DNA of 64,000 nt from Alphaproteobacteria bacterium (GCA_965237415.1 CBDEFM010000002.1:2304001-2368000), one strand, 5' to 3'; positions 1 through 21,535 are shown, counted from the stretch's first letter. The notes: generated from the sequence alone by a model not told the origin. Made by a program: numbers and translations.

Positions 1-561
1 CCCGTGCTGCACCGCCTTGCATACGAGGTCGCCGACGACCTCAGGGTGCGCCGCGCCGAGGCCGGCGCGGACAGGATGCGGGGCTTCGCCGCGTTCGCCT
101 ACGCCGCCCGCTCCTGGAGCCGCCAGCGCCGGGTCGTCGCCCGGCTGGAGGCGACCGCGCGGGGCTTCGACGCCCGCTACATCGTCACCTCGCTCGGCGG
201 AGACGCCCGCCATCTCTACGAAGATATCTACTGCGCCCGCGGCCAGGCCGAGAACCTCATCAAGCTGCACAAGGGCCAGCTCGCGTCGGACCGCACCTCC
301 TGCCAGAGCCCGCTCGCCAACCAGTTCCGCCTCGTCCTGCACACCGCGGCCTACTGGCTGATGCTCGCCCTCCGCGATGCCGTGCCCCGCAGGATGCCGC
401 TCGCCTGGGCCGAGTTCGCGACCCTCAGGGCGCGCCTGCTCAAGATCGGCGCCCGCGTCGTCGAGAGGGCCGCCCGCATCCGCATCCACTTCGCTTCGGC
501 CTGTCCGGACGCCGCCCTGTTCCGCCTGCTGGCGGGGCGCCTCGCGGCCTCGGGCCCCTGA
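1..561 (+). CDS. IS1380-family transposase (C-terminal part; gene starts before the window)
   Basis: Motifs W..RRVVARLE, YCARGQAENLIK, SDRTSC, NQFRL.LH..AY; clearly homologous to the 446-aa transposase at 11481-12821. Confidence 0.9.
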   Translation, partial: PVLHRLAYEVADDLRVRRAEAGADRMRGFAAFAYAARSWSRQRRVVARLEATARGFDARYIVTSLGGDARHLYEDIYCARGQAENLIKLHKGQLASDRTSCQSPLANQFRLVLHTAAYWLMLALRDAVPRRMPLAWAEFATLRARLLKIGARVVERAARIRIHFASACPDAALFRLLAGRLAASGP

Positions 562-6708: not shown

Positions 6709-7467
6709 TCAGTGCGCCATCAGCACGGGCACCGTCGTATGGCCGAGGACGTGGTGGGTGGCGCCGCCGAACGCGACCTCGCGCAGCCGCGAGTGCCCGT
6801 ACGCCCCCATGACCACCAGGTCCGCCCCGCACATGTCGGCGGCCTCGACCAACGCATCGCCTACGTGAGCGTCCGGCGCGACCTCGTGATGTCCCTGGGC
6901 CCTGACCCCATGGCGCGACAGGTAAGTCAAGAACTCGCTGGTGGCAAACCCACCCATCTTCGGCGCGTGTACGGTGACGACGGTGACCTCATCCGCCTTC
7001 TCCAGGATGGGCAGGGAATCGGCGACGGCCCTCGATGCCTCCCTCGTCTGGGTCCACGCGACCAAGACGTGCTTGCCCACCACCGATAGTCCGTTGCAAT
7101 CGCGTACGACCACCACCGGTTTCCCGGATGCGATTACAAGCTCCTCGGCGAGACTGGGGCCCGACATGCGCGAGCCTTGGGAATGTCCCGCGATGACGAC
7201 ATCGGTCAACTGGGCGTGCAGCGCCATGATCGTGTGCGGCTCGCCGAAGTAGCCACAGAAATCGGCATCGATGCCGGCATCCGCGGTCCGTTTTACGGAA
7301 CGCCTCCTCGGGCGCCGCCAGGGCCTTCTCGCGGTCGTCGGCCAGGTGAGAAGGAAACGTGTAGTTGGCCGTGATATGGGCATCGTGCGCCTTGGCCAGC
7401 GCGATCGCGATGCCCATGCGCGTCTCGCTCTGCGGGCTCTCGTCCAGATGGACGAGGATGTCCTTAA
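6709..7467 (-). pseudogene. Universal stress protein (tandem UspA), frameshifted near 7285 and 5'-truncated by the IS1380 left end
   Basis: KDILVHLDESPQSETR...AH in one frame, then VLVAW...DLVVMGAYGHSRLRE..FGGATHHVL in another; the start codon is replaced by the IS IR at 7468. Confidence 0.8.
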
Positions 7468-7639
7468 CCCGAACTATTCAGTGCGCCGTGGAAAGGCGCC
7501 GTCCCTCAGCGGGTGCGAACCCCGCCCGGCAACAGTCGCTCCAGCCGGTAGCAATCGGAGCGGTTGAAGGAGGCAACGACTTCGACTGAAGCACTTCGGT
7601 GTAACGGGCCGCCCTGGGCGGCTCAGCGACCATGCGGGC

Positions 7640-9552
7640 GTGTGCCAGGCTAACTGGCAGAGGATAGCCGGTGAGAGTCCGGTAGGGAGTAGAGGTTAAC
7701 CACCACTCTCGCCCCGAGTCATGCGCCGGTCGTCGCGAGGCGGCAGGTGAAGCGTTGACAGGGGTGCGGATGGGCAGGGCAACGGAGCATCGAAAGGTTG
7801 CTTGTCTGGAGAGCCGAGACTGTGCCTGCGGTCGAAGGCAACACCGACATCGCCGATATGGTGAGGGGATGTTGGGCTCCACGGTGTCGAAGAACCCATG
7901 CACGTTCGTACGTCCTCATTGCCGGGACCTGGGAGGTCTCCATTTTGCCCCGAAGTCGTAACGGGGCCGCAAAGGAAAGGATGTATCCGTAACCGATGAC
8001 GTACGGAATGGAGAAGTCGGATGAGGGAATAGTACCGATGAAAGCGACGAACAAGGGCGCGCAAGCGCCTGCGGAGTCGCCGGAGGGAAGTGCCTCAACC
8101 AAGGGGAATCTGCGAGATCAAAGCACGTGCCGGACGCAGTGTCGGGAAAGCGTGTCACAGGCGGTCGCGTGGATACGGCAGGCTGTAACGAGGAAACCGC
8201 AGGAGAAACTCACTGCGCTGCTACACCATGTCACGATAGATGCCCTGACGTGGGCGTTCTTCGAGTTGAAGAAGGACGCCTCGGCGGGGGTGGATGGGAT
8301 GACGTGGGGAGAGTACGAGGACGGGCTGGAAGAGCGGCTGCTCGACCTTCACGGACGCGTGCACTCGGGAGCGTATCGGGCGCGGCCATCCCGGCGGGTC
8401 GAAATACCCAAACCGGATGGCGGGACACGACCGCTCGGCATTGCCGCACTGGAAGACAAGATTGTCCAGAAAGCGGTGGTGGAAGTTATCCTGACGCCAA
8501 TTTACGAGCCGGATTTTCTCGGGTTCAGCTATGGGTTCCGACCGGGGCGTGGGGCGCACGACGCGCTTGATGCTCTGGCCTTCGGGATAGAACGGCGCAA
8601 GGTCAACTGGATAGTGGACTGTGACATCCGCGGATTTTTCGACAATGTCTCTCGGGACTGGCTGGTCCGGTTCCTTGAGGATCGCATCGGAGACAAGCGG
8701 GTCATCAGGCTGTTCGCCAAATGGCTGAATGCCGGCGTCATGGAAGATGGCGAGTGGCGGGATAACTTGCGAGGAACGCCTCAGGGCGCGGTGGCTTCAC
8801 CGATTCTCGCGAACATCTACCTGCACTACGTACTCGACCTCTGGTTCCAGAGGGAATGGCGCACCCGTGTGGCCACGGGGGAAACAATCATCGTGCGGTA
8901 TGCTGATGACTTCGTGGTCGGGTTCCAGCGCAAACAGGACGCGGAGCGGTTTCTCCACGATCTCAAGGAAAGGCTGGGCCAGTTTGAGCTTGAGTTGCAT
9001 CCAGACAAGACCCGACTCATCGAGTTTGGCAGGTTCGCGATGGCGGACCGCCGGGCACGAGGGGAACGGCGACCGGAGACCTTCGATTTCCTTGGATTCA
9101 CGCACTATTGCAGGAAGAAGAGGAACGGGAAATTCGGACTGGGGCGCAAGCCGATAGCGAAGCGGGTCACGCGGACCCTGAATCGGATCAAAGGGGAGCT
9201 CCGTAAGCGGATGCACGAAGATGTCCACGAAACCGCGCGCTGGCTGGGTCAGGTGGTCAATGGATGGCTGAACTATTTCGCCGTCCCGACCAGCAGCTCG
9301 GCCGCAAGGGGGTTTGTGCGGCGGCTCTCATGGATCTGGGTGAATGTCCTGCGAAGACGGTCACAGAAGGACCGGACCACGATCGCCGATGTCGTGCGCA
9401 TTGCCGCATTGCATTGGCCACCCGTCCAGGTTCGGCACCCTTGGCCGACGGTGCGTTTTGCCGTCAAACACCCGAGGTAGGAGCCCCGTGCCCCACCGGG
9501 CATGCGGGGATCTGAGCGGGGGGAGCGGGGTAACCCGCTTCCCTACCGCGAC
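7640..9552 (+). ncRNA. Group II intron, inner, copy 1 (class E-like; tentative), inserted in domain I of the outer intron
   Basis: 5' GTGTG; DV GAGCcccgtg...gcggggatctgagcgggggg just after the RT stop; 3' end CCCTACCGCGAC; EBS1 GCCTGC (7824-7829) pairs with IBS1 GCGGGC (7634-7639) with one G-U. Confidence 0.88.
7996..9480 (+). CDS. ltrA: Group II intron reverse transcriptase/maturase (inner intron, no endonuclease domain)
   Basis: AGVDG, IPKPDGGTRPLGI, SYGFRPGR, GTPQG, RYADD, FDFLGF. Confidence 0.95.
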   Translation: MTYGMEKSDEGIVPMKATNKGAQAPAESPEGSASTKGNLRDQSTCRTQCRESVSQAVAWIRQAVTRKPQEKLTALLHHVTIDALTWAFFELKKDASAGVDGMTWGEYEDGLEERLLDLHGRVHSGAYRARPSRRVEIPKPDGGTRPLGIAALEDKIVQKAVVEVILTPIYEPDFLGFSYGFRPGRGAHDALDALAFGIERRKVNWIVDCDIRGFFDNVSRDWLVRFLEDRIGDKRVIRLFAKWLNAGVMEDGEWRDNLRGTPQGAVASPILANIYLHYVLDLWFQREWRTRVATGETIIVRYADDFVVGFQRKQDAERFLHDLKERLGQFELELHPDKTRLIEFGRFAMADRRARGERRPETFDFLGFTHYCRKKRNGKFGLGRKPIAKRVTRTLNRIKGELRKRMHEDVHETARWLGQVVNGWLNYFAVPTSSSAARGFVRRLSWIWVNVLRRRSQKDRTTIADVVRIAALHWPPVQVRHPWPTVRFAVKHPR

Positions 9553-9873
9553 CGCAACGCGAGTGAACGCCGAGCAGGCCTCGAAACGGGCAACGCGGAG
9601 GCCGACCCGCCTGAATAACGGGGAAGGCTGCCATCGGTCGGGAAGAGGGCGACGCGCGCACCGACCGGCTCCGCCGGGGTAGTGGCGGCGGCACGCATGG
9701 AAGAGGGGGACGGTGGCAACACGGGAAGCCCTGTCGGTGGTGTGTACGCACCAACCGGAACCCCGCGAGGGGCAGGCCGGGCCGGCAGGGTGGCGGAGGG
9801 GCTTGTATTACCGCGGATGCCGGGTAACGCCGGCGGAGGGAAGGAGCCCTGGTTCGAGAGCGATACGGGAAGG

Positions 9874-11223
9874 ATGAAAGGCGTGACCACTGGCGAGAGC
9901 CTACCAGGGTCAGAGAAGGTCCGGAAACTCCAGACCGTGTTACATGCGAAAGCCAAGGAAGAACCCGGCCGGCGTTTCCACGCACTGATCGACAAGGTGT
10001 GGCGCGAGGACTTTCTCGCGGAAGCCTGGAGGCGGGTCCGCCGCAACGGCGGCTCCGCCGGGGTGGACGGAGAGACCTTCGCGGACATCGAGTCATACGG
10101 CGTGGGGCGCTGGCTTGGGGAACTGGCGCGGGATCTGAAGGACGGGACCAACACACCGAAGCCGGTGCGGCAGGTTCTGATCCCGAAGAAGCAGCCCGGC
10201 AAGTTCCGGCCATTGGGCATTCCCTGCATACGGGACCGGGTGGCGCAGACATCGGCCTTGCTCGTGCTTGAGCCGATATTCGAAGCCGACCTGCAACCGG
10301 AGCAGTACGCCTACAGGCCGGAGCGGAGCGCCCATGACGCGGTAAGACGCGTTCACAGCCTCCTGAACAGGGGGCATAACGAGGTGGTCGATTGCGATCT
10401 GTCCAACTACTTCGGCGAGATTCCGCATGCTGAGCTCCTAAAGAGCCTCGCCCGGCGCATCAGCGACGGGCGGATGCTACGGCTCGTCAAGGCGTGGCTG
10501 GAAATGCCGGTGGAGGAGGACGACGGCAAGGGCGGCAAACGCCGCACGAACCGGGCGCGGAGGGAGCGGAAAGGGACCCCGCAGGGGTCGCCGATCTCGC
10601 CCCTGGCCAGCAACCTCTACATGCGGCGCTTCATACTGGGCTGGACGGCGCTGGGCCATGCCCGGCGCTTCCGTGCGGAGATCGTGAACTACGCCGATGA
10701 CTTCTGTGTGCTCGGCAAGGCCCCGGCGGCGGAGATGCTGACGGCGGTCGAGCGGCTCGTGGCGGGTCTGAAGCTGACGGTCAACGAACGGAAAACCCGA
10801 TGCCTGCGGTGCCCGGAGGAACCCCTGGAGTTCCTGGGCTACCGCATTGGACGCAACTACCGTCCTTACGGGAAAGGGGCCTACATCGGCACCCGCCCCG
10901 GCAAGGCAAGCGTCCAGAGCATCTGCCGCAGGATCAGCGACATGACGGCGCGAGGGTGGAGCTGGCAGTCGCCGGAGGCGATGGTGGAAAGCCTGAACCG
11001 GACTATGACCGGATGGGCGAACTACTTCAGCCTCGGGCAGGTCAGCCCGGCCTACAGCGCGGTCAACCGACACGCGGTCCGGCGGCTGCGCCGGTGGCTC
11101 TGCCTCAAGCACAAGGTGAGGACCGGGAAATACGTGCGCTTTCCGGACACGAGGCTACGCGATGACTACGGCCTCGCTCGCCTGTCGCCACGGGCCATGG
11201 GTCTTTCGAACGCGAAGGCATGA
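9874..11223 (+). CDS. ltrA: Group II intron reverse transcriptase/maturase (outer intron, no endonuclease domain); start probably 9874 or 9883 rather than 9682
   Basis: KLQ..LHAKAK, AGVDG, RPLGIP, GTPQGSPISP, NYADD, EFLGY. Confidence 0.93.
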   Translation: MKGVTTGESLPGSEKVRKLQTVLHAKAKEEPGRRFHALIDKVWREDFLAEAWRRVRRNGGSAGVDGETFADIESYGVGRWLGELARDLKDGTNTPKPVRQVLIPKKQPGKFRPLGIPCIRDRVAQTSALLVLEPIFEADLQPEQYAYRPERSAHDAVRRVHSLLNRGHNEVVDCDLSNYFGEIPHAELLKSLARRISDGRMLRLVKAWLEMPVEEDDGKGGKRRTNRARRERKGTPQGSPISPLASNLYMRRFILGWTALGHARRFRAEIVNYADDFCVLGKAPAAEMLTAVERLVAGLKLTVNERKTRCLRCPEEPLEFLGYRIGRNYRPYGKGAYIGTRPGKASVQSICRRISDMTARGWSWQSPEAMVESLNRTMTGWANYFSLGQVSPAYSAVNRHAVRRLRRWLCLKHKVRTGKYVRFPDTRLRDDYGLARLSPRAMGLSNAKA

Positions 11224-11231
11224 TCTCGTCC

Positions 11232-11268
<37 letters not shown>

Positions 11269-11480
11269 TGAGCGGGGACTGGAAACGCGGCCATGGGAGC
11301 CGGACTGAGGCCCGGAGCGAAAGCGACGGACAAGCCACCGGACCCTGACGCTGGCGCGCCAGTCCTCGACTCTACCGACACGCTGTAAAAGGGTTGGTGA
11401 GCATGGATTAACCTGTTGAGATTCCGTATGATTTTGGTGTTGAAACAAGATCACATGGCAACAGGAATTTCCAACTCACC

Positions 11481-12821
11481 ATGAACGAGACTATCGCCTA
11501 TCTGCCCGGTTTGTCACCGGTCGAGAATAAAGAACTGTGCGCTCGTTTCGATGGCGGCCGGTTGTCGTCCGACGGTGGTGTGCTGTTGCTGCGTGGGATC
11601 GAGAAACGGCTCGGTCTTGCGGCACGCCTTGGCAGTTGTCTGACCGACACGCGCGACCCGGCAAGCACGACCCACTCCTACGCGGACATGATCGGGGCGC
11701 GCCTGTTCGCCATCGCCTGCGGCTATGAGGATTGCGACGACCTCGATGTTCTGCGGTTCGATCCGGCGTTCAAGCTGGCCTGTGGGCGTCTGGCCGAGAC
11801 GGGTCGTGATCTGATGTCGCAGCCGACCTTGTCCAGGCTCGAGAACGCGCCGTCATGGCGGGCGTTGGCGCGCATGGGGCTGTCCATGATCGATCTGTTC
11901 GGCGAAAGCTTCGAACGTGTTCCCGACCGTATCGTCCTCGACATCGACGATACCGACGATGCCGTCCACGGCGGCCAGCAGCTGGCGTTGTTCAACGCCC
12001 ACTATGGCGAGTACTGCTTCCAGCCCATCCATATCTTCGAGGCGTCCACGGCCAAGCCGGTGCTGTCGCTGCTGCGCCCGGGTAAGCGGCCCTCTGGAGA
12101 AGAGGCGGCGCGGATCCTCAAGCATGTCATCCGCCGCATCCGGCGCCACTGGCCCAGGGTCGGGATCGTCGTGCGCGGCGATGGCCATTACGGCACGCCC
12201 GAGGTCATGGACCTGCTGGAAGACCTGGGCTGCGGCTACGTCTTCGGGCTTCCCGGCAACGCCCGGCTGACAAGGATCGGCCAGCCGTGGTGCGAGGACG
12301 TGGCGGTTCGCCGGGTGCGCTCACGCAAGCACCAAGTGCGCCGCTTCTTCCAGACCGGCTACCAGGCCGGAAGCTGGTCACGCGAGCGTACCGTCATCGC
12401 CCGCGTCGAGGTCACATCGAAAGGCTCCGACATACGCTTCATCGTCACGAACCTGCCCTGCCGGTCCAAGGTGCTCTATGAGAGGATCTATTGCGCCCGC
12501 GGCAGGATGGAAAACATGATCAAGGAGCACAAGCTCTACACCAAATCCGACCGTACGTCGTGCCACCGCTGGGAAGCCAACCAGTTCCGGCTCTTCCTGC
12601 ACAGCGGCGCCTATTGGCTGCTGCATCAGCTTCGCCAAGCCGCGCCCCGCCGCTCACCGTGGCGCAAGGCGACGTTCGAAACCATCCGCCGGGCGTTCCT
12701 CAAGATCGCCGTGCGCATCGAGGAGCTCAAGTCCCGCGTGCGCGTCGCCCTGCCGTCAGCCTATCCATATCGGCCAGCCCTCGTCTCGATGGCCGGCTGC
12801 ATCGCCGCTCAAGGCCCCTGA
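11481..12821 (+). CDS. IS1380-family transposase (intact, 446 aa)
   Basis: FDGGRLSSDGG, GYED.DD, SQPTLSRLEN, LDID.TDD, RGD.HY, YCARG.MEN.IKE, SDRTSCH. Confidence 0.95.
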   Translation: MNETIAYLPGLSPVENKELCARFDGGRLSSDGGVLLLRGIEKRLGLAARLGSCLTDTRDPASTTHSYADMIGARLFAIACGYEDCDDLDVLRFDPAFKLACGRLAETGRDLMSQPTLSRLENAPSWRALARMGLSMIDLFGESFERVPDRIVLDIDDTDDAVHGGQQLALFNAHYGEYCFQPIHIFEASTAKPVLSLLRPGKRPSGEEAARILKHVIRRIRRHWPRVGIVVRGDGHYGTPEVMDLLEDLGCGYVFGLPGNARLTRIGQPWCEDVAVRRVRSRKHQVRRFFQTGYQAGSWSRERTVIARVEVTSKGSDIRFIVTNLPCRSKVLYERIYCARGRMENMIKEHKLYTKSDRTSCHRWEANQFRLFLHSGAYWLLHQLRQAAPRRSPWRKATFETIRRAFLKIAVRIEELKSRVRVALPSAYPYRPALVSMAGCIAAQGP

Positions 12822-13055
12822 ATCGGGCGGCAAATGCCGCCGGATGGAACCCCGAACATCAACCCCCAACCGATCTCAAAATTCAACGCGAAAAACCGCC
12901 GTCAACCCGGATAACCCCGCTCGCCTCGGTCAAACCCGCCAATTGTCAGTAGAGTCGAGGACTGGCGCGCCAGCGTCAGGGTCCGGTGGCTTGTCCGTCG
13001 CTTTCGCTCCGGGCCTCAGTTCGGCTCCCATGGCCGCGTTTCCAGTCCCCGCTCA

Positions 13056-13092
<37 letters not shown>

Positions 13093-13100
13093 GGACGAGA

Positions 13101-14450
13101 TCATGCCTTCGCGTTCGAAAGGCCCATGGTCCGTGGCGACAGGCGAGCGAGGCCGTAGTCATCGCGTAGCCTCGTGTCCGGAAAGCGCACGTATTTCCCG
13201 GTCCTCACCTTGTGCTTGAGGCAGAGCCACCGGCGCAGCCGCCGGACCGCGTGTCGGTTGACCGCGCTGTAGGCCGGGCTGACCTGCCCGAGGCTGAAGT
13301 AGTTCGCCCATCCGGTCATAGTCCGGTTCAGGCTTTCCACCATCGCCTCCGGCGACTGCCAGCTCCACCCTCGCGCCGTCATGTCGCTGATCCTGCGGCA
13401 GATGCTCTGGACGCTTGCCTTGCCGGGGCGGGTGCCGATGTAGGCCCCTTTCCCGTAAGGACGGTAGTTGCGTCCAATGCGGTAGCCCAGGAACTCCAGG
13501 GGTTCCTCCGGGCACCGCAGGCATCGGGTTTTCCGTTCGTTGACCGTCAGCTTCAGACCCGCCACGAGCCGCTCGACCGCCGTCAGCATCTCCGCCGCCG
13601 GGGCCTTGCCGAGCACACAGAAGTCATCGACGTAGTTCACGATCTCCGCACGGAAGCGCCGGGCATGGCCCAGCGCCGTCCAGCCCAGTATGAAGCGCCG
13701 CATGTAGAGGTTGCTGGCCAGGGGCGAGATCGGCGACCCCTGAGGGGTCCCTTTCCGCTCCCTCCGCGCCCGGTTCGTGCGGCGCTTGCCGCCCTTGCCG
13801 TCGTCCTCCTCCACCGGCATTTCCAGCCACGCCTTGATGAGCCGTAGCATCCGCCCGTCGCTGATGCGCCGGGCGAGGCTCTTGAGTAGTTGGGCGTGCG
13901 GGATTTCGCCGAAGTAGTTGGACAGATCGCAATCGACCACCTCGTTATGCCCCCTGTTCAGGAGGCTGTGAACGCGTCTTACCGCGTCATGGGCGCTCCG
14001 CTCCGGCCTGTAGGCGTACTGCTCCGGTTGCAGGTCGGCTTCGAATATCGGCTCAAGCACGAGCAAGGCCGATGTCTGTGCCACCCGGTCCCGTATGCAG
14101 GGAATGCCCAATGGCCGGAACTTGCCGGGCTGCTTCTTCGGGATCAGAACCTGCCGCACCGGCTTCGGTGTGTTGGTCCCGTCCTTCAGATCCCGCACCA
14201 GTTCCCCAAGCCAGCGCCCCACGCCGTATGACTCGATGTCCGCGAAGGTCTCTCCGTCCACCCCGGCGGAGCCGCCGTTGCGGCGGACCCGCCTCCAGGC
14301 TTCCGCGAGAAAGTCCTCGCGCCACACCTTGTCGATCAGTGCGTGGAAACGCCGGCCGGGTTCTTCCTTGGCTTTCGCATGTAACACGGTCTGGAGTTTC
14401 CGGACCTTCTCTGACCCTGGTAGGCTCTCGCCAGTGGTCACGCCTTTCAT
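13101..14450 (-). CDS. ltrA: Group II intron RT/maturase (outer intron copy 2; YVDD variant)
   Basis: Near-identical to 9874-11223 with 5 aa changes, including YADD>YVDD. Confidence 0.93.
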   Translation of the reverse strand: MKGVTTGESLPGSEKVRKLQTVLHAKAKEEPGRRFHALIDKVWREDFLAEAWRRVRRNGGSAGVDGETFADIESYGVGRWLGELVRDLKDGTNTPKPVRQVLIPKKQPGKFRPLGIPCIRDRVAQTSALLVLEPIFEADLQPEQYAYRPERSAHDAVRRVHSLLNRGHNEVVDCDLSNYFGEIPHAQLLKSLARRISDGRMLRLIKAWLEMPVEEDDGKGGKRRTNRARRERKGTPQGSPISPLASNLYMRRFILGWTALGHARRFRAEIVNYVDDFCVLGKAPAAEMLTAVERLVAGLKLTVNERKTRCLRCPEEPLEFLGYRIGRNYRPYGKGAYIGTRPGKASVQSICRRISDMTARGWSWQSPEAMVESLNRTMTGWANYFSLGQVSPAYSAVNRHAVRRLRRWLCLKHKVRTGKYVRFPDTRLRDDYGLARLSPRTMGLSNAKA

Positions 14451-14771
14451 CCTTCCCGTATCGCTCTCGAACCAGGGCTCCTTCCCTCCGCCGGCGTTAC
14501 CCGGCATCCGCGGTAATACAAGCCCCTCCGCCACCCTGCCGGCCCGGCCTGCCCCTCGCGGGGTTCCGGTTGGTGCGTACACACCACCGACAGGGCTTCC
14601 CGTGTTGCCACCGTCCCCCTCTTCCATGCGTGCCGCCGCCACTACCCCGGCGGAGCCGGTCGGTGCGCGCGTCGCCCTCTTCCCGACCGATGGCAGCCTT
14701 CCCCGTTATTCAGGCGGGTCGGCCTCCGCGTTGCCCGTTTCGAGGCCTGCTCGGCGTTCACTCGCGTTGCG

Positions 14772-16684
14772 GTCGCGGTAGGGAAGCGGGTTACCCCGCT
14801 CCCCCCGCTCAGATCCCCGCATGCCCGGTGGGGCACGGGGCTCCTACCTCGGGTGTTTGACGGCAAAACGCACCGTCGGCCAAGGGTGCCGAACCTGGAC
14901 GGGTGGCCAATGCAATGCGGCAATGCGCACGACATCGGCGATCGTGGTCCGGTCCTTCTGTGACCGTCTTCGCAGGACATTCACCCAGATCCATGAGAGC
15001 CGCCGCACAAACCCCCTTGCGGCCGAGCTGCTGGTCGGGACGGCGAAATAGTTCAGCCATCCATTGACCACCTGACCCAGCCAGCGCGCGGTTTCGTGGA
15101 CATCTTCGTGCATCCGCTTACGGAGCTCCCCTTTGATCCGATTCAGGGTCCGCGTGACCCGCTTCGCTATCGGCTTGCGCCCCAGTCCGAATTTCCCGTT
15201 CCTCTTCTTCCTGCAATAGTGCGTGAATCCAAGGAAATCGAAGGTCTCCGGTCGCCGTTCCCCTCGTGCCCGGCGGTCCGCCATCGCGAACCTGCCAAAC
15301 TCGATGAGTCGGGTCTTGTCTGGATGCAACTCAAGCTCAAACTGGCCCAGCCTTTCCTTGAGATCGTGGAGAAACCGCTCCGCGTCCTGTTTGCGCTGGA
15401 ACCCGACCACGAAGTCATCAGCATACCGCACGATGATTGTTTCCCCCGTGGCCACACGGGTGCGCCATTCCCTCTGGAACCAGAGGTCGAGTACGTAGTG
15501 CAGGTAGATGTTCGCGAGAATCGGTGAAGCCACCGCGCCCTGAGGCGTTCCTCGCAAGTTATCCCGCCACTCGCCATCTTCCATGACGCCGGCATTCAGC
15601 CATTTGGCGAACAGCCTGATGACCCGCTTGTCTCCGATGCGATCCTCAAGGAACCGGACCAGCCAGTCCCGAGAGACATTGTCGAAAAATCCGCGGATGT
15701 CACAGTCCACTATCCAGTTGACCTTGCGCCGTTCTATCCCGAAGGCCAGAGCATCAAGCGCGTCGTGCGCCCCACGCCCCGGTCGGAACCCATAGCTGAA
15801 CCCGAGAAAATCCGGCTCGTAAATTGGCGTCAGGATAACTTCCACCACCGCTTTCTGGACAATCTTGTCTTCCAGTGCGGCAATGCCGAGCGGTCGTGTC
15901 CCGCCATCCGGTTTGGGTATTTCGACCCGCCGGGATGGCCGCGCCCGATACGCTCCCGAGTGCACGCGTCCGTGAAGGTCGAGCAGCCGCTCTTCCAGCC
16001 CGTCCTCGTACTCTCCCCACGTCATCCCATCCACCCCCGCCGAGGCGTCCTTCTTCAACTCGAAGAACGCCCACGTCAGGGCATCTATCGTGACATGGTG
16101 TAGCAGCGCAGTGAGTTTCTCCTGCGGTTTCCTCGTTACAGCCTGCCGTATCCACGCGACCGCCTGTGACACGCTTTCCCGACACTGCGTCCGGCACGTG
16201 CTTTGATCTCGCAGATTCCCCTTGGTTGAGGCACTTCCCTCCGGCGACTCCGCAGGCGCTTGCGCGCCCTTGTTCGTCGCTTTCATCGGTACTATTCCCT
16301 CATCCGACTTCTCCATTCCGTACGTCATCGGTTACGGATACATCCTTTCCTTTGCGGCCCCGTTACGACTTCGGGGCAAAATGGAGACCTCCCAGGTCCC
16401 GGCAATGAGGACGTACGAACGTGCATGGGTTCTTCGACACCGTGGAGCCCAACATCCCCTCACCATATCGGCGATGTCGGTGTTGCCTTCGACCGCAGGC
16501 ACAGTCTCGGCTCTCCAGACAAGCAACCTTTCGATGCTCCGTTGCCCTGCCCATCCGCACCCCTGTCAACGCTTCACCTGCCGCCTCGCGACGACCGGCG
16601 CATGACTCGGGGCGAGAGTGGTGGTTAACCTCTACTCCCTACCGGACTCTCACCGGCTATCCTCTGCCAGTTAGCCTGGCACAC
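14772..16684 (-). ncRNA. Group II intron, inner, copy 2
   Basis: Reverse complement of 7640-9552, at the same insertion site in the outer intron. Confidence 0.88.
14844..16328 (-). CDS. ltrA: Group II intron RT/maturase (inner intron copy 2)
   Basis: Protein identical to 7996-9480. Confidence 0.95.
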   Translation of the reverse strand: MTYGMEKSDEGIVPMKATNKGAQAPAESPEGSASTKGNLRDQSTCRTQCRESVSQAVAWIRQAVTRKPQEKLTALLHHVTIDALTWAFFELKKDASAGVDGMTWGEYEDGLEERLLDLHGRVHSGAYRARPSRRVEIPKPDGGTRPLGIAALEDKIVQKAVVEVILTPIYEPDFLGFSYGFRPGRGAHDALDALAFGIERRKVNWIVDCDIRGFFDNVSRDWLVRFLEDRIGDKRVIRLFAKWLNAGVMEDGEWRDNLRGTPQGAVASPILANIYLHYVLDLWFQREWRTRVATGETIIVRYADDFVVGFQRKQDAERFLHDLKERLGQFELELHPDKTRLIEFGRFAMADRRARGERRPETFDFLGFTHYCRKKRNGKFGLGRKPIAKRVTRTLNRIKGELRKRMHEDVHETARWLGQVVNGWLNYFAVPTSSSAARGFVRRLSWIWVNVLRRRSQKDRTTIADVVRIAALHWPPVQVRHPWPTVRFAVKHPR

Positions 16685-16875
16685 GCCCGCATGGTCGCTG
16701 AGCCGCCCAGGGCGGCCCGTTACACCGAAGTGCTTCAGTCGAAGTCGTTGCCTCCTTCAACCGCTCCGATTGCTACCGGCTGGAGCGACTGTTGCCGGGC
16801 GGGGCCCTCTCTGCCAACGTCAGTGAGACACCGATACCCCGAGGAATTACTGTAGGGCGGTGGAGGTGAGAACCG

Positions 16876-17364
16876 ATGAATTCAGAAAGAGAGTCGATGA
16901 CCAGTATGGAGACGGACGCTCCGGCCCTGGGGGGTGAGGAGCGTAGCGACGAGGCCCCCAGGGCCGGAGCGAGCGGCGCGAAGCCGCCGTCGGACCCGGA
17001 GGTCGTGGCCAAGCCGAAGCGGCGCACGTTCACCGCGCAGTATCGAGTACGGATCCTCGAGGAGGCGGAGAGCTGCACGCAGCCCGGCGAGGTGGGCCGG
17101 CTGCTTCGCCGCGAGGGGCTGTACAGCTCCCATCTGACGGATTGGCGCAGGGCGCGGCGTCAGGGTTCGCTTCGGGGCCTGACCCCGAGCAAGCGCGGTC
17201 GGAAGCCCGCCGAGCGCAACCCCCTCAGCGCGAAGGTGCACGAGCTAGAGGCGAAAGTGGCTCGGCTGGAGAAGGAGCTGCACACCGCCCATACGATCCT
17301 GGACGTCCAGGGAAAAGTTGCCGGGCTGCTGGGATTCAGCCTCGAACACGGGAAGGACTGCTGA
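16876..17364 (+). CDS. IS3-family transposase OrfA (HTH)
   Basis: KRRTFTAQYRVRIL, LLRREGLYSSHLTDWRR, followed by a coiled coil. Confidence 0.85.
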   Translation: MNSERESMTSMETDAPALGGEERSDEAPRAGASGAKPPSDPEVVAKPKRRTFTAQYRVRILEEAESCTQPGEVGRLLRREGLYSSHLTDWRRARRQGSLRGLTPSKRGRKPAERNPLSAKVHELEAKVARLEKELHTAHTILDVQGKVAGLLGFSLEHGKDC

Positions 17365-17690
17365 TGGCCGTCCAGCCGCTCGCATCGCAGGTCGGCGTGA
17401 CGCCGGCGTGCCGGGCGCTGGGGGTGCCGCGGGCTACCTTCTACCGTCGCCGGAGGCCCGCTCCCGGGTGCAAAATCTGACCGCATTTGACCGCGATTCC
17501 GATTTTATTTGACCGAAGTTCTGGCGACATTTGACCGCGATTCCGGCGGCACTTGACCGTCGGAGGCCGGGTCTGAGGCCCGTCCCGATCGCCCTCCGGG
17601 CGCCATCGACATCCATGTTTTCAGGCGCGCCGATCCTCTCCCGGCTCAGCCTCATCGATCCACTGATCGACTCGAGGAGGCAGGGCCCCA

Positions 17691-19286
17691 ATGAAGAGGA
17701 TCGACACCATGAGCATCCGGGACATCCTTCGGCACCATCACGACCTGGGCTTGCCCCGGGCGGAGATTGCGGTGGCCGTGAGCGTGAGCGCGGGGACGGT
17801 ATCGAACGTTCTGGAGCGCGCGCAGGCGGCGGGTCTGTCATGGCCGTTGCCGTCCGATCTCGACGATGACGGGCTGCGCGCGCGTCTGTATCCGCCGGCG
17901 GCGCGAGAGAGCGGGTATGCGCAGCCGGACTGGGACGCTGTGCTCCGTGAGCTTGGAGCCAAGCGGAAGCGGCGCCGGGTGCGCGCGACGCGCCGCACGC
18001 TTTGGGAGGAGTACCGCGACGAGGCCGTGGCCCAGGGCGGCAAGGCGTACAGCTACAGCCAGTATTGCGCGCGCCTGAAGGCGCACCAGGGCAGCTGCGG
18101 CAGCTCGGCGCAGATGCACTTCGACTACGAGCCCGGGCTGTACGGGATGGCGGACTTCTCCGGCAAGACGCTGGCCCTTCGCACCGGGCGCGGCGAGACC
18201 GACGTGGAGATCTTCGTCGCCGTGCTCGCACATTCGAACCTGATCTACGCGGAGGCAACGCCCGACCAGACGGTGCGCCACTGGACGATGGCGCACCGGC
18301 GCGCGCTCGAGTACTTCGGCGGCACCCCCCGCCGGTGGATCATCGACAACCTCAAGTCGGGGGTGGACGATCCCGACCGCGACGATATCCGGCTCAATCC
18401 GAGCTTCCGGGAGTTCGCGCAGCACTACGAGATCGCGGTGCTGCCTGCGCGCAAGGGGCGGGCCACCGACAAGGGGCTGGTAGAGGCGAGCGTCAAGGCC
18501 GTGCAGACGCGCATCCTGCTGGCGCTGCGCCACCAGACCTTCTTCTCCCTCGACACCATGAACGCCGCCATCCGCCGCGAGCTCGACCGCCTCAACGACA
18601 CCCCCATGGCCAAGTGTGGCGAGAGCCGCCGTGCGCTCTTCGAGGCGAACGAGCGGGCCGCCCTGGCCGCGCTGCCGGCTCACGCCTGGGAGTGGGGAGG
18701 GTGGGTCGAGCGCAAGGTCGGGCCGAACTGTCACGTTCGCTTCGACAAGAATCACTACTCCGCGCCGGTGCGCTACATCGGCCGCCAGGTCGACGTCCGC
18801 GTCGGCGAACGCATGGTCGAAGTCTTCCTCGAACGCGGCGGCGAGCGCATCGCCGTCCACCGCCGCAAGAGCGGGCGCAACCAGTACGCCACCACCCCCG
18901 ACCACATGCCCGAGCACCACCGGGCGGTCTGTGATATCCGCCGCCCCGATTACGGCGACATCCTGCTCGACCAGGCGCGCCGCATCGGAGCCAATGCCCT
19001 GGCCTGGGCCGAGCGATGCTACGCCTCGCGCGACTTCCCGGAACAGGCCTTCGCCACCGTGCAGGGCATGATCCGCCTCGCTGACGATCATGGTGGCGAT
19101 CGCCTCGACGTGCTCTGCGCCGAGGCCCTCGACCTCAACCGCCTCGCCTCGGGCTTCCTCAGGGAGCGGATCAAGAACGGCGGTGAGCCCGGTCGGCCGC
19201 GCCCCGAGCCCGACGAGACCATCCCCAGCCACGGCAACATCCGCGGTGGCGACTACTACGGCAACAATGACGGAGAATCACCATGA
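17691..19286 (+). CDS. istA: IS21 transposase
   Basis: YSYSQYC, DFSG, IDNLKSGV, DKGLVE, YSAP motifs. Confidence 0.92.
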   Translation: MKRIDTMSIRDILRHHHDLGLPRAEIAVAVSVSAGTVSNVLERAQAAGLSWPLPSDLDDDGLRARLYPPAARESGYAQPDWDAVLRELGAKRKRRRVRATRRTLWEEYRDEAVAQGGKAYSYSQYCARLKAHQGSCGSSAQMHFDYEPGLYGMADFSGKTLALRTGRGETDVEIFVAVLAHSNLIYAEATPDQTVRHWTMAHRRALEYFGGTPRRWIIDNLKSGVDDPDRDDIRLNPSFREFAQHYEIAVLPARKGRATDKGLVEASVKAVQTRILLALRHQTFFSLDTMNAAIRRELDRLNDTPMAKCGESRRALFEANERAALAALPAHAWEWGGWVERKVGPNCHVRFDKNHYSAPVRYIGRQVDVRVGERMVEVFLERGGERIAVHRRKSGRNQYATTPDHMPEHHRAVCDIRRPDYGDILLDQARRIGANALAWAERCYASRDFPEQAFATVQGMIRLADDHGGDRLDVLCAEALDLNRLASGFLRERIKNGGEPGRPRPEPDETIPSHGNIRGGDYYGNNDGESP

Positions 19287-20053
19287 CCCTGCGACAACCC
19301 AATATCGATCGCCTGCTGCAGCTCGGCCTCAGCGGCATGGCCGAGGCGCTGGAGGAGCAGCACGACATCGCCGACGTCGACCAGCTCGGCTTCGACGACC
19401 GCCTCGCCATGATGATCGAGCGCGAAGCCGAGCACCGCGATCACAAGAGCTATCTCGGCCATCTGCGCCAGGCCCAGTTGCGCGTCCGCGCCGACGTCCA
19501 GGACGTCGACTGCCGCGCAGGGCGTGGCATCGCCCGGACCACGCTCACCCAGCTCGCGGCCGGCGACTGGATCCGCCAGGGCCACAATCTGATCCTGGGT
19601 GGGCCAACCGGGTCGGGAAAGACATTCGTCGCTTGTGCGCTCGCCCACCAGGCCTGCCGCCAGCACCAGTCCGTCCTCTACCGCCGCGTGCCCGAGCTGG
19701 TGGCGGCGCTCACCCGCGCCCGCGACAAAGGCACGCTCGAGCGCCTGATGGGCCGCCTGGGCAGGGTCTCCCTGCTGGTCCTCGACGACTGGGGCCTCCA
19801 CGGCTTCTCCACCGAGGGCCGGCGCGACCTGCTGGAGATCGTCGAGCAGCGCCACGGACGCAAGTCCATACTCATCGCCAGCCAGATCCCCGTGGAGGGC
19901 TGGCCGAAGGTGATCGGAGAGCCAACGATCGCGGACGCGGTCCTCGACCGCATCGTACACAACGCCTATCGCATTGAGCTCAAGGGAGAGTCCCAGCGCA
20001 AGCGCAACAAGCCCCCGCCACTCGACGGCGGCGGCAACAGAGCCCCGGCCTGA
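19283..20053 (+). CDS. istB: IS21 ATPase helper
   Basis: Walker A GPTGSGKT, LLVLDDWG, ADAVLDRIVHNA. Confidence 0.93.
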   Translation: MTLRQPNIDRLLQLGLSGMAEALEEQHDIADVDQLGFDDRLAMMIEREAEHRDHKSYLGHLRQAQLRVRADVQDVDCRAGRGIARTTLTQLAAGDWIRQGHNLILGGPTGSGKTFVACALAHQACRQHQSVLYRRVPELVAALTRARDKGTLERLMGRLGRVSLLVLDDWGLHGFSTEGRRDLLEIVEQRHGRKSILIASQIPVEGWPKVIGEPTIADAVLDRIVHNAYRIELKGESQRKRNKPPPLDGGGNRAPA

Positions 20054-21535
20054 AGGCCGGGGTCCATGGGCGCCTGCGGCGCCTTCCAGGTTGCGAGGGC
20101 GGAGGTGCGCGCCGGCATGCTGTGTGAGAGCTTGCCGCCGCGCCCCGCCGGCCGTTTGCATGCCCAAGAGGCCTCGCATACGCTCGGCTCGGGCTGGCCA
20201 AAGGCCAGCCCCCTGACATCACCTGGGGGAGGGTCCCACCGCCAAATCCGGGAGAGACAGCGCGCTGGCGCGCGCCCGCGGCACGGTCAAGTGTTGCCAG
20301 AATCCCGGTCAAATAAAATCAGAACCGGCGGTCAAATAAACCGGAATCCGCACCCGGGCATCGGCAGCCCCGTCCTGCGCCCGCCCGGGCCCTGTGCGCG
20401 TCCGAACGCGCGCACGTCCTCGACGTGCTCGCCAGCCCGCGCTTCGTCGACCGGTCACCGGCCGAGGTCGTCGCGACGCTGCTCGATGAAGGCGAGTATC
20501 TGTGCGCCGAGCGCACGATGTACCGGATCCTGGCTGCGAACCAGCCGGTCCGAGAGCGGCGCAATCAGCTCAGCCATCCCTGCTACACCAAGCCCGAGCT
20601 GGTGGCCACGGCCCCCAACCAGACCTGGTCCTGGGACATCACCCGGCTCCGCGGGGCCAAACGCTGGACGTCCTTCTACCTCTACGTCCTGCTCGACATC
20701 TTCAGCCGCTACGTCGTGGGCTGGATGGTTGCCGACCGGGAGAACGCCGCGCTCGCCGCGACGCTGATCGAGGAAACCTGCCTCAAGCAAGACATCGAAC
20801 CCCAGGTGCTCACCCTGCATTCGGACCGCGGCGCGCCGATGACCAGCAAGTGCACCGCCCAACTCCTCGCCGATCTCGGGGTCACCCGCTCTCTGAGCCG
20901 CCCCCGGGTCAGCGACGACAACCCGTTCTCCGAAGCGCAGTTCAAGACCCTGAAATACCACCCCGGCTTCCCCGGTCGCTTCGAAAACATCACCGCTGCC
21001 ATCGCCTTCTGCCGGTCGTTCTTCCCCTGGTACAACACCGAGCACCGCCATGCCGGGATCGCGATGCTCACCCCCGACGATGTCCATCATCACCGGGCAT
21101 CGGATGTGCTGGCTCAGCGCGGACGGACCCTGCAAGCCGCCTGGGCCCTGCACCCCGAACGTTTCGTCCACGGCACCCCGAAACCCGACCCGCTTCCCGA
21201 AGCGGTCTGGATCAACCCACCCGCCACTCCCACAACAGGAGAAACGAGTCAGTAAATAGAAGCCGCCGGTGTCTCAAAATCGTTGACAGGTTCCGGGTTC
21301 GCACCCGCTGAGGGACGGCGCCTTTCCACGGCGCACTGAATAATTCGGGTTAGTCTGATGGTGATTGTGGTCAGGAGATGGCCTGAGTAGTCATCAGTTT
21401 GAAGATTGTCGACGCTCTGACTTTGTTTGCTCTCTGGAGTGATCTGGAATGGTCTTCTGTTTCCTTTGTTGCGGTGCCTATGTGGTACCTGGGAAATGGA
21501 TGCAGGAGAACTACACATTGAGCCGGGCGTTTTCT

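Follow-up and report, generated by a model that had tools for sequence, protein, structure and literature searches.

Group II twintrons in both terminal inverted repeats of an IS1380 element

The closest described counterpart of the locus reported here is RmInt2 of Sinorhizobium meliloti GR4, a group II intron all natural copies of which occupy the inverted repeats (IRs) of the insertion sequence (IS) ISRm17, with two sites per element on opposite strands and with retrohoming shown experimentally (PMC4615759). Here we describe an IS1380-family element in a 64,000-nucleotide stretch of the genome of an Alphaproteobacteria bacterium (GCA_965237415.1, CBDEFM010000002.1:2304001–2368000; this whole stretch is called the window), both IRs of which hold a copy of a group II intron that is itself interrupted by a second group II intron, an arrangement known as a twintron. 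An earlier note on the same DNA had suspected that an intron lineage targeting terminal IRs would be new, a claim overturned by the published homing of RmInt2 into the IRs of ISRm17 (PMC4615759). What is new is the use of the IS1380 and IS1634 families and of miniature inverted-repeat transposable elements (MITEs) as hosts, the different intron lineage and its breadth, and the hyperparasitic inner intron.

As in RmInt2, the intron is endonuclease-less, IS IRs are its target and either repeat can be used (both ends in the window, left and right ends in a second genome, G049), and recognition runs through exon-binding sites (EBS) 1, 2 and 3, with a linker between intron-binding sites (IBS) 2 and 1. 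RmInt2 differs in belonging to class D, and its motif LX3AX3PXLF[V/A]HW (PMC4615759) was not seen by eye in the C termini of either intron protein here. The hosts differ too, being IS1380- and IS1634-family elements and MITEs, with both ends of one IS occupied, and by twintrons; and the lineage here spans several phyla and habitats.

RmInt1, in the parts of the literature covered, resides in ISRm2011-2, a member of the IS630 family. Its site lies inside the IS, and we know of no report that places it in the terminal repeat of ISRm2011-2. For RmInt1 as for the present family, an IS is a multi-copy, low-cost homing site, and some family members (L012–L019) sit in an IS630-like gene; unlike in RmInt1, no IS reading frame is interrupted in the window. 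Introns of class C (IIC) function without an EBS2. They share with the lineage described here its specialisation on a recurrent non-coding DNA feature, an endonuclease-less protein and recognition mostly in the 5′ exon, but IIC introns read a DNA hairpin and a short IBS1, whereas here an EBS2 exists and covaries with its target. The described IIC sites lie after terminator hairpins or in attC sites (PMC4424553, PMC12584367). We considered hairpin targeting of this kind and rejected it, because the flanks contain no constant hairpin and EBS2 covaries; one relative, L034, does follow a hairpin. IStrons, which combine a group I intron with an IS605-type transposon (PMC4227781), likewise join a ribozyme intron and a DNA transposon in one mobile unit; they are fused elements in which the intron makes insertions harmless, whereas here the intron invades transposon ends and joint mobility is putative. 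The parts covered of two reviews (PMC4424553, PMC12584367) do not list IS ends among the specialised intron contexts. In a literature search for tip-homing introns, which did not extend to the combination of IS1634 with group II introns, RmInt2 and ISRm17 were the sole precedent.

Positions 7464–21353 of the window hold a single IS1380 element bearing four additional mobile elements (Table 1). Two inward-facing twintron copies, each of 3,895 nt before later insertions (7481–11375 on the plus strand and 12949–21336 on the minus strand), are placed after the 13th base of their respective IR. With junctions marked by a slash, the left copy reads TTAA-CCCGAACTATTCA/GTGCG at 7480/7481 and CTCTAC/CGACA at 11375/11376, and the right copy TGTCA/GTAGAG at 12948/12949 and CGCAC/TGAATAATTCGGG-TTAG at 21336/21337; all four lie where the earlier note had put them. 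A repeat search returns the inserts as a near-perfect inverted repeat of 3,861 nt together with one of 58 nt. In-silico excision of both inserts restores, as had also been claimed, an IS1380 of 1,599 bp (13 + 1,573 + 13) with 18-bp IRs that have two mismatches (positions 7 and 14) and agree with the ends of intron-free IS1380 relatives. Its transposase gene is intact and encodes a full-length protein of 446 amino acids that matches NCBIfam IS1380 NF033539 (E = 1.4e-122, 409 bits against a cut-off of 180, model positions 2–418 of 419) and PF13701 (E = 2.8e-150). The picture of one intron sitting 13 bp inside each tip and facing inward thus stands, with the amendment that each insert is a twintron and that the right copy is split by IS3 and IS21 elements. 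The unit of 9.4 kb envisaged earlier does not hold: the structure measures 13.9 kb because the IS3 element, with the IS21 element in it, lies in the right copy.

We propose, at a probability of roughly 0.85, that an endonuclease-less outer intron retrohomed independently into both IRs of the IS1380 element and that an inner intron then homed into each of the two copies. The case is carried by four observations: the anatomy of the locus, covariation of the intron–target pairings, the repeated occurrence of the intron at this site across many unrelated genomes, and IS copies of another genome that were invaded independently.

Across 59 distinct intron junctions, exon positions −1 to −6 are paired with the EBS1 columns (9612–9617) in 0.78–0.91 of sites, with four to six pair types; exon +1 is paired with the EBS3 column (9682) in 0.94 of sites, with five pair types, and exon −13 with the EBS2 column (9590) in 0.83 of sites, with six. 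Both the EBS1 assigned earlier to 9612–9617, which covaries with exon −6 to −1, and the suggestion that a single G at EBS3 could pair with C or T at +1 are borne out. The EBS1 loop lies where RF02005 has its corresponding stem-loop, and it folds as CCCG-9 nt-CGGG. Within the window, the CGGG of EBS2 pairs with CCCG (IS bases 1–4) and EBS1 UGAAUA with TATTCA (bases 8–13), and the EBS3 G (9682) lies opposite base 14, which is C at the left end and U at the right. Site-by-site reading of the loops confirmed EBS1 in nearly all lineages and gave an EBS2 of three to five bases that pairs around −14 to −10; in metagenome copies, among the matches listed, EBS2 tracks changes of the tip (CCT–AGG, TCC–GGA and CTT–AAG). 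These data support an outer intron that is specialised on the IS1380 end and would recognise it through EBS1 and the single G at EBS3. Because the repeats of the IS are inverted, they present the same target once per strand, and the copies consequently face inward.

The earlier note had predicted that tabulated flanks of related introns would mostly show IS1380 IR cores, and metagenomes agree. Scanning with TATTCA joined to the first 16 bases of the intron yielded at least 119 stretches, of which 80 were examined and 78 had enough upstream sequence. The tip motif YTAR-CCYG stands at −17 to −10 exactly in 52 of the 78 and with one mismatch in 19 more (71/78; this and the metagenome counts that follow are among the matches listed), and at up to one mismatch it was found in 0 of 304 control windows slid upstream. 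A looser test (tip CCYG or CCCN plus YTAR) was passed by 57 sites with 53 distinct outer flanks. Few of the metagenome sites are complete ISs; an IS1380 transposase follows in L148, L179 and L186. Ten loci instead have a minimal form in which a flank, a 13-bp tip, the intron, 8 to 202 nt, an inverted tip and a second flank follow one another, and in L175 the intron and the opposite tip are just 8 nt apart, with TTAA on both sides. The same short form occurs in the genome loci L004 and L005. Empty 263-bp MITEs of the family of L004 and L005 are present in genome G050, with repeats that match for about 31 bp; the search pattern CCCGNNNTTCTCR was too loose (45 + 41 matches against 8 + 9 in the control), so only paired sites were used. 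The four-base flanks of the ten MITE loci are identical in only six, and the central TA is common to nine. The duplication proper may be TA; each end would then gain one base, and the intron would sit 14 bases inside. Derivatives of the outer intron of about 750–776 nt that lack the open reading frame (ORF) are common at the same IS-tip site (L155, L157, L161, L164, L177, L189, L214 and L215). A joint 9586 to 11228 in the public runs X15 and X16 corresponds to such ORF-less derivatives.

Relatives of the outer-intron protein (75–89% identity) are encoded at 79 loci in other genomes; the outer 5′ segment is matched in 73 of them, most carry a contiguous intron of roughly 1,980–2,000 nt, and the 5′ end could not be resolved in 13. 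An IS1380 or IS1634 transposase lies directly inside the intron at 13 of the 79 (L003, L039, L041–L044, L048, L053, L054, L064, L067, L069 and L075), and seven further loci either have the flank of such a locus or display the repeat of the other end (L002, L004, L005, L065, L071, L072 and L076), so that 20 of the 79 lie in tips of these families or in derived MITEs. The intron stands 13 bases from the tip at most of these loci and 11 in one lineage. In a tree of the intron ORF region, tip loci fall into at least five separate groups interspersed with lineages that use other sites. Many ORFs downstream of introns in GC-rich loci, having no family match, were judged spurious. The nearest plasmid-borne relatives do not exceed 55% identity, lie away from IS tips and are therefore uninformative on tip homing. 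The claimed specialisation on the IS1380 end accordingly keeps the support of covariation and of recurrence at tips, and loses its exclusiveness, since the wider family also uses IS1634 tips, MITEs, an IS630-like frame and non-IS sites. Two side observations concern this family: one alphaproteobacterial genome has members of it in seven near-identical IS630-like elements, within a helix-turn-helix coding region (L012–L015 and L017–L019), and a sub-lineage (L029, L031, L033 and L036–L038) has a different sequence, starting GTGAT, in place of the outer intron's first ~54 nt.

Repeated invasion can be followed within a single genome, G049, whose 42 exact tips belong to 21 copies of an IS1634-family element: 16 empty, three with a single intron, one with a tandem pair and one rearranged. 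The four occupied copies have the intron at three left ends and one right end. These introns are 100% identical to one another and to two copies at non-IS look-alike sites, and the host IS copies differ by 2–5%. Identical introns in diverged IS copies, at either end, point to recent, repeated and independent retrohoming rather than to co-transposition.

Head-to-tail arrays with zero spacer (CTCTAC/GTGCG) and two to five copies occur at L023, L042, L071, L072, L075, L076 and L078, the array of L076 containing 719-nt ORF-less units; no such tandem is present in the window. For RmInt2, head-to-tail copies have been explained by an EBS3 U that pairs with the first G of the resident intron (PMC4615759), and the tandems here fit this explanation: in L042 the outer copy is the newer one and has U at EBS3. 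The RNA run X15 contains a head-to-tail joint of 11375 to 7491.

Intron-free copies were also sought. IS1380 relatives from the order of the window host retain CCCGnnnTATTCA/YG ends, in line with what the earlier note had expected of unoccupied elements, and the intron is absent from four of five IS1380-rich relatives. A search for the empty site with the left flank in 21 genomes of the genus gave three weak partial matches and nothing useful. A 1,977-nt contig of run X1 spans exactly 11376–12948 with 14 differences and runs on at its two sides for 64 and 341 letters that are incompatible with the introns; we read it as an intron-free copy of the window IS1380. Contigs from two RNA libraries depart from the window exactly at 7480 and 12948, as either spliced RNA or intron-free alleles would produce.

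Several observations weigh against independent tip homing or limit its generality. EBS2 pairing extends over just 3–4 bp and fails in some lineages (L044 and L071). At least 43 of the 79 genome loci lie away from any recognised IS tip, including seven in the IS630-like frame and several that are ordinary intergenic. The metagenome scan required TATTCA, and these bases themselves belong to the tip motif. The studied IS1380 is single-copy in its genome, so no empty site is available within that genome. Its flanks, TTAA and TTAG, form an imperfect duplication with TA alone in common. Elements of the IS1380 family have terminal IRs beginning with CC, and their target duplications are expected to be 4–5 bp long. 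Last, the 17 differences between the two copies all lie 3′ of 10126, a pattern that patchy recombination between the copies would give equally.

Two readings of the consequence for the IS compete. The introns cut the outer 13 bp off from the rest of the repeat and may thereby have immobilised this IS copy, leaving it a dead end. We regard this as possible at somewhat worse than even odds: the IS is single-copy in its genome, IS3 and IS21 insertions have accumulated in it since, related IS1380 and MITE ends are similar over 31–40 bp and thus beyond base 13, and in G049 just four of 21 IS copies hold an intron; the transposase gene, however, is intact and full length, and the stubs described below and the minimal tip–intron–tip units suggest that 13-bp tips are still usable.

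Slightly more doubtful is that, on top of retrohoming, the introns hitch-hike, the outer 13–14 bp being sufficient for the transposase so that tip–intron–tip units, whether the whole IS with its introns or an intron-bearing MITE, also move as DNA. A 48-bp stub, in which a 13-bp IS1380-type tip is followed by the opening 22 nt of the intron and then by an inverted tip, with CTAG on both sides, is found in identical form at two unrelated sites (L212 1088–1143 / L187, at a contig end, and L213 8050–8105), and the same breakpoint at two sites is most easily explained by transposition after deletion. The ten minimal metagenome loci (among the matches listed), with the 8-nt spacer of L175, point the same way, as does the IS1634 element at L039, whose two ends agree no further than about base 14, one base past the 13-bp tip, and whose intron follows base 13. 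Yet empty MITEs of the same family exist, so that homing into pre-existing MITEs accounts for the intron-bearing ones; the identical introns in diverged IS copies of G049 are the opposite of what co-transposition predicts; the ends of other IS1380 elements and MITEs match over 31–40 bp, so that the intron splits a longer repeat there; the stub has been seen at two sites only; and no element with both tips occupied was found beyond the window. Less probable again, and to be held loosely, is a complete three-level chain of parasites, in which the inner intron would spread among phyla in the outer intron, the outer intron would home into the first 14 bases of IS1380, IS1634 and MITE ends, and tip–intron–tip units would also be moved as DNA by the IS transposase. 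If this were true, the intron would have a second way to spread, driven by the transposase, and the IS1380 and IS1634 families would need no more than the 13-bp tip as a functional end.

A different origin of the second copy, through recombination or copying between the IS repeats after a single homing event, or through assembly from two IS copies, is improbable. It would fit the identity of the first 2.6 kb of the shared part (7520–10126) between the copies, and flanks that differ (TTAA and TTAG), but outside the intron there are only 13 bp and 5 bp of homology, less than ordinary recombination requires, both junctions coincide with exact intron ends, the copies differ at 17 positions, and in G049 the two ends are used independently of each other. 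An assembly artefact in the form of a falsely duplicated inverted repeat is very improbable, because the 3.86-kb near-perfect inverted repeat, although a structure that assemblers can create, carries 17 differences between its arms, a 4.5-kb IS3/IS21 insert in one arm only and unique outer flanks, and the same junction type recurs in dozens of other assemblies.

The two introns of each copy were delimited by comparison. The outer intron (7481–7639 plus 9553–11375, 1,982 nt) starts with GTGCG and ends with CTCTAC, fitting the group II consensus (5′ GUGYG, 3′ AY); it scores 43.5 bits with RF00029 (gathering threshold 40) and folds into domain 5 (D5), in agreement with the AGC triad and 2-nt bulge expected there, and a domain 6 (D6) whose bulged A lies 7 nt from the end (z = −4.9). 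Rfam models RF02003, RF02005 and RF00029 match on both strands, each copy having the full set of domain 1–4 motifs, one D5–D6 and a second, partial domain 1 motif. Each twintron has two reverse transcriptase (RT)/maturase ORFs, of 494 and 513 amino acids, which are 29% identical to each other, both have YADD and both match the group II RT/maturase model TIGR04416 (E = 1.5e-107 and 1.6e-94); the outer ORF, in domain 4, scores 316.9 bits (cut-off 300), has YADD and also matches RVT_1 and GIIM. Pfam found no endonuclease domain in either intron ORF. The 17 differences between copies A (left) and B (right) are all within 10127–11303, in the outer intron.

The inner intron scores 166.7 bits with RF02005 and its protein 359.8 bits with TIGR04416. 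Its D5/D6 fold (z = −4.6) has a bulged UA, the bulged A again lying 7 nt from the end, and its D5 stayed below RF00029 detection even at E up to 10. IBS1 of the inner intron, GCGGGC (7634–7639), pairs with GCCUGC in its own EBS1 loop. The boundaries 7640–9552 (inner) and 7481–7639 plus 9553–11375 (outer) follow from uninterrupted relatives, which run from 7481–7639 straight into 9553 and read ...ATGCGGGC-CGCAACG... across the inner-intron site; the same relatives ruled out a 5′ end at 7513 (a second GTGCG) and a span of 7639–9546. Contig joints 7638 to 9552, which skip the inner intron, occur in four of four public runs. The two inner copies have no differences in 1,913 nt. A third intron, 76% identical to the inner one, lies outside the window (G000 C2:2258326–2259975); its 5′ end is atypical or truncated, and its 3′ end is cut by an apparent IS21 IstA C terminus.

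Nested introns are described in Methanosarcina acetivorans (PMC4424553) and in bacterial twintrons such as those of Trichodesmium (PMC4649490), where, as here, one intron homes site-specifically into another and interrupts the outer ribozyme. The present case differs in the conservation of the inner intron. The same nesting is found in L025, L054, L055 and L057, and in part in L051; in the first four, the inner intron has the same position and is 98.8–99.0% identical, in hosts whose outer-intron proteins are only 76–84% identical to that of the window. Judged from these sequences, the inner intron has been spreading recently as a parasite of a single intron family, itself parasitic on IS tips.

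Table 1. Features of the composite IS1380 element (positions in the window)
Feature	Position	Strand	Remarks
Left flank TTAA	7464–7467		target site; only central TA common with right flank TTAG
IS1380 left IR, outer 13 bp	7468–7480	+	CCCGAACTATTCA; contains IBS2 CCCG 7468–7471 and IBS1 TATTCA 7475–7480
Outer intron copy A, 5′ part	7481–7639	+	GTGCG start; domain 1 start; RF02003 at 7507–7650
Inner intron copy A	7640–9552	+	1,913 nt, GTGTG...GAC; RF02005 7674–7896; ORF 7996–9480 (RT/maturase); D5–D6 9481–9552
Outer intron copy A, 3′ part	9553–11375	+	EBS2 9587–9590 (CGGG); EBS1 9612–9617 (TGAATA); EBS3 9682 (G)
Outer intron copy A, ORF (RT/maturase)	9682–11223 (as listed)	+	intron-protein homology from about 9913; YADD
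Outer intron copy A, D5	11234–11266	+	D6 to 11375
IS1380 interior	11376–12948	+	inner 5 bp of each repeat (CGACA, TGTCA); transposase gene 11481–12821
Outer intron copy B, 3′ part	12949–14771	-	ORF 13101–14642
Inner intron copy B	14772–16684	-	ORF 14844–16328; identical to copy A
Outer intron copy B, 5′ part distal to IS3 insertion	16685–16804	-	
IS3-family element	16805–21294	+	4,490 bp; in domain 1 of outer intron B; 3-bp duplication CCC/GGG
IS3 orfA	16876–17364		HTH_Tnp_1; orfB split
IS21-family element inside IS3	17469–20352	+	2,884 bp; TG...CA ends; 6-bp duplication CCCGGG
IS21 istA	17691–19286		
IS21 istB	19283–20053		
Outer intron copy B, first 42 nt	21295–21336	-	5′ GTGCG at 21336
IS1380 right IR, outer 13 bp	21337–21349	-	CCCGAATTATTCA on the minus strand
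Right flank TTAG	21350–21353		

The ends of the IS21 element carry 22-nt periodic TTTGACCG repeats (17476–17559 and 20273–20327), inverted between the ends; these repeats probably serve the transposase as multiple binding sites. Another IS1380-family transposase gene, with 52% identity to the studied one, lies across the start of the window (1–558; G000 C2:2303251–2304558), and related genomes hold many copies of this transposase type. One kilobase from the pile of mobile elements, a complete rRNA operon occupies the minus strand at 22356–27828 (16S, two tRNAs, 23S, 5S and one tRNA); if it is co-oriented with replication, copy B would lie on the lagging-strand template and copy A would not.

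Independent retrohoming into both repeats would proceed as follows. The outer intron RNA would recognise the IS end by pairing EBS2 with bases 1–4, EBS1 with bases 8–13 and EBS3 with base 14, and would insert by reverse splicing, primed at replication forks in the manner of RmInt1 and RmInt2. The inner intron would then have homed into the conserved domain 1 site (GCGGGC/C) of each outer copy to produce the two twintrons, and an IS3 element carrying an IS21 element would later have inserted into copy B; this is the order of events that we infer. The outer intron would presumably splice only after removal of the inner one.

Homing into transposon ends is, on this evidence, more than a curiosity of RmInt2: a large environmental intron lineage practises it, with members in several bacterial phyla (mostly uncultured bacteria, several labelled sponge-associated) and in metagenome contigs from varied sources. 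The target takes in even the outermost bases of the IS, which makes these elements a natural system for the effect of an intron in the transposase binding site on transposition. MITEs with a complete intron, together with the 48-bp stubs, hint that a DNA transposon may carry a retroelement, a case that can be put to the test, and the inner intron, at about 99% identity despite outer proteins that are 76–84% identical, is a marker of very recent horizontal spread.

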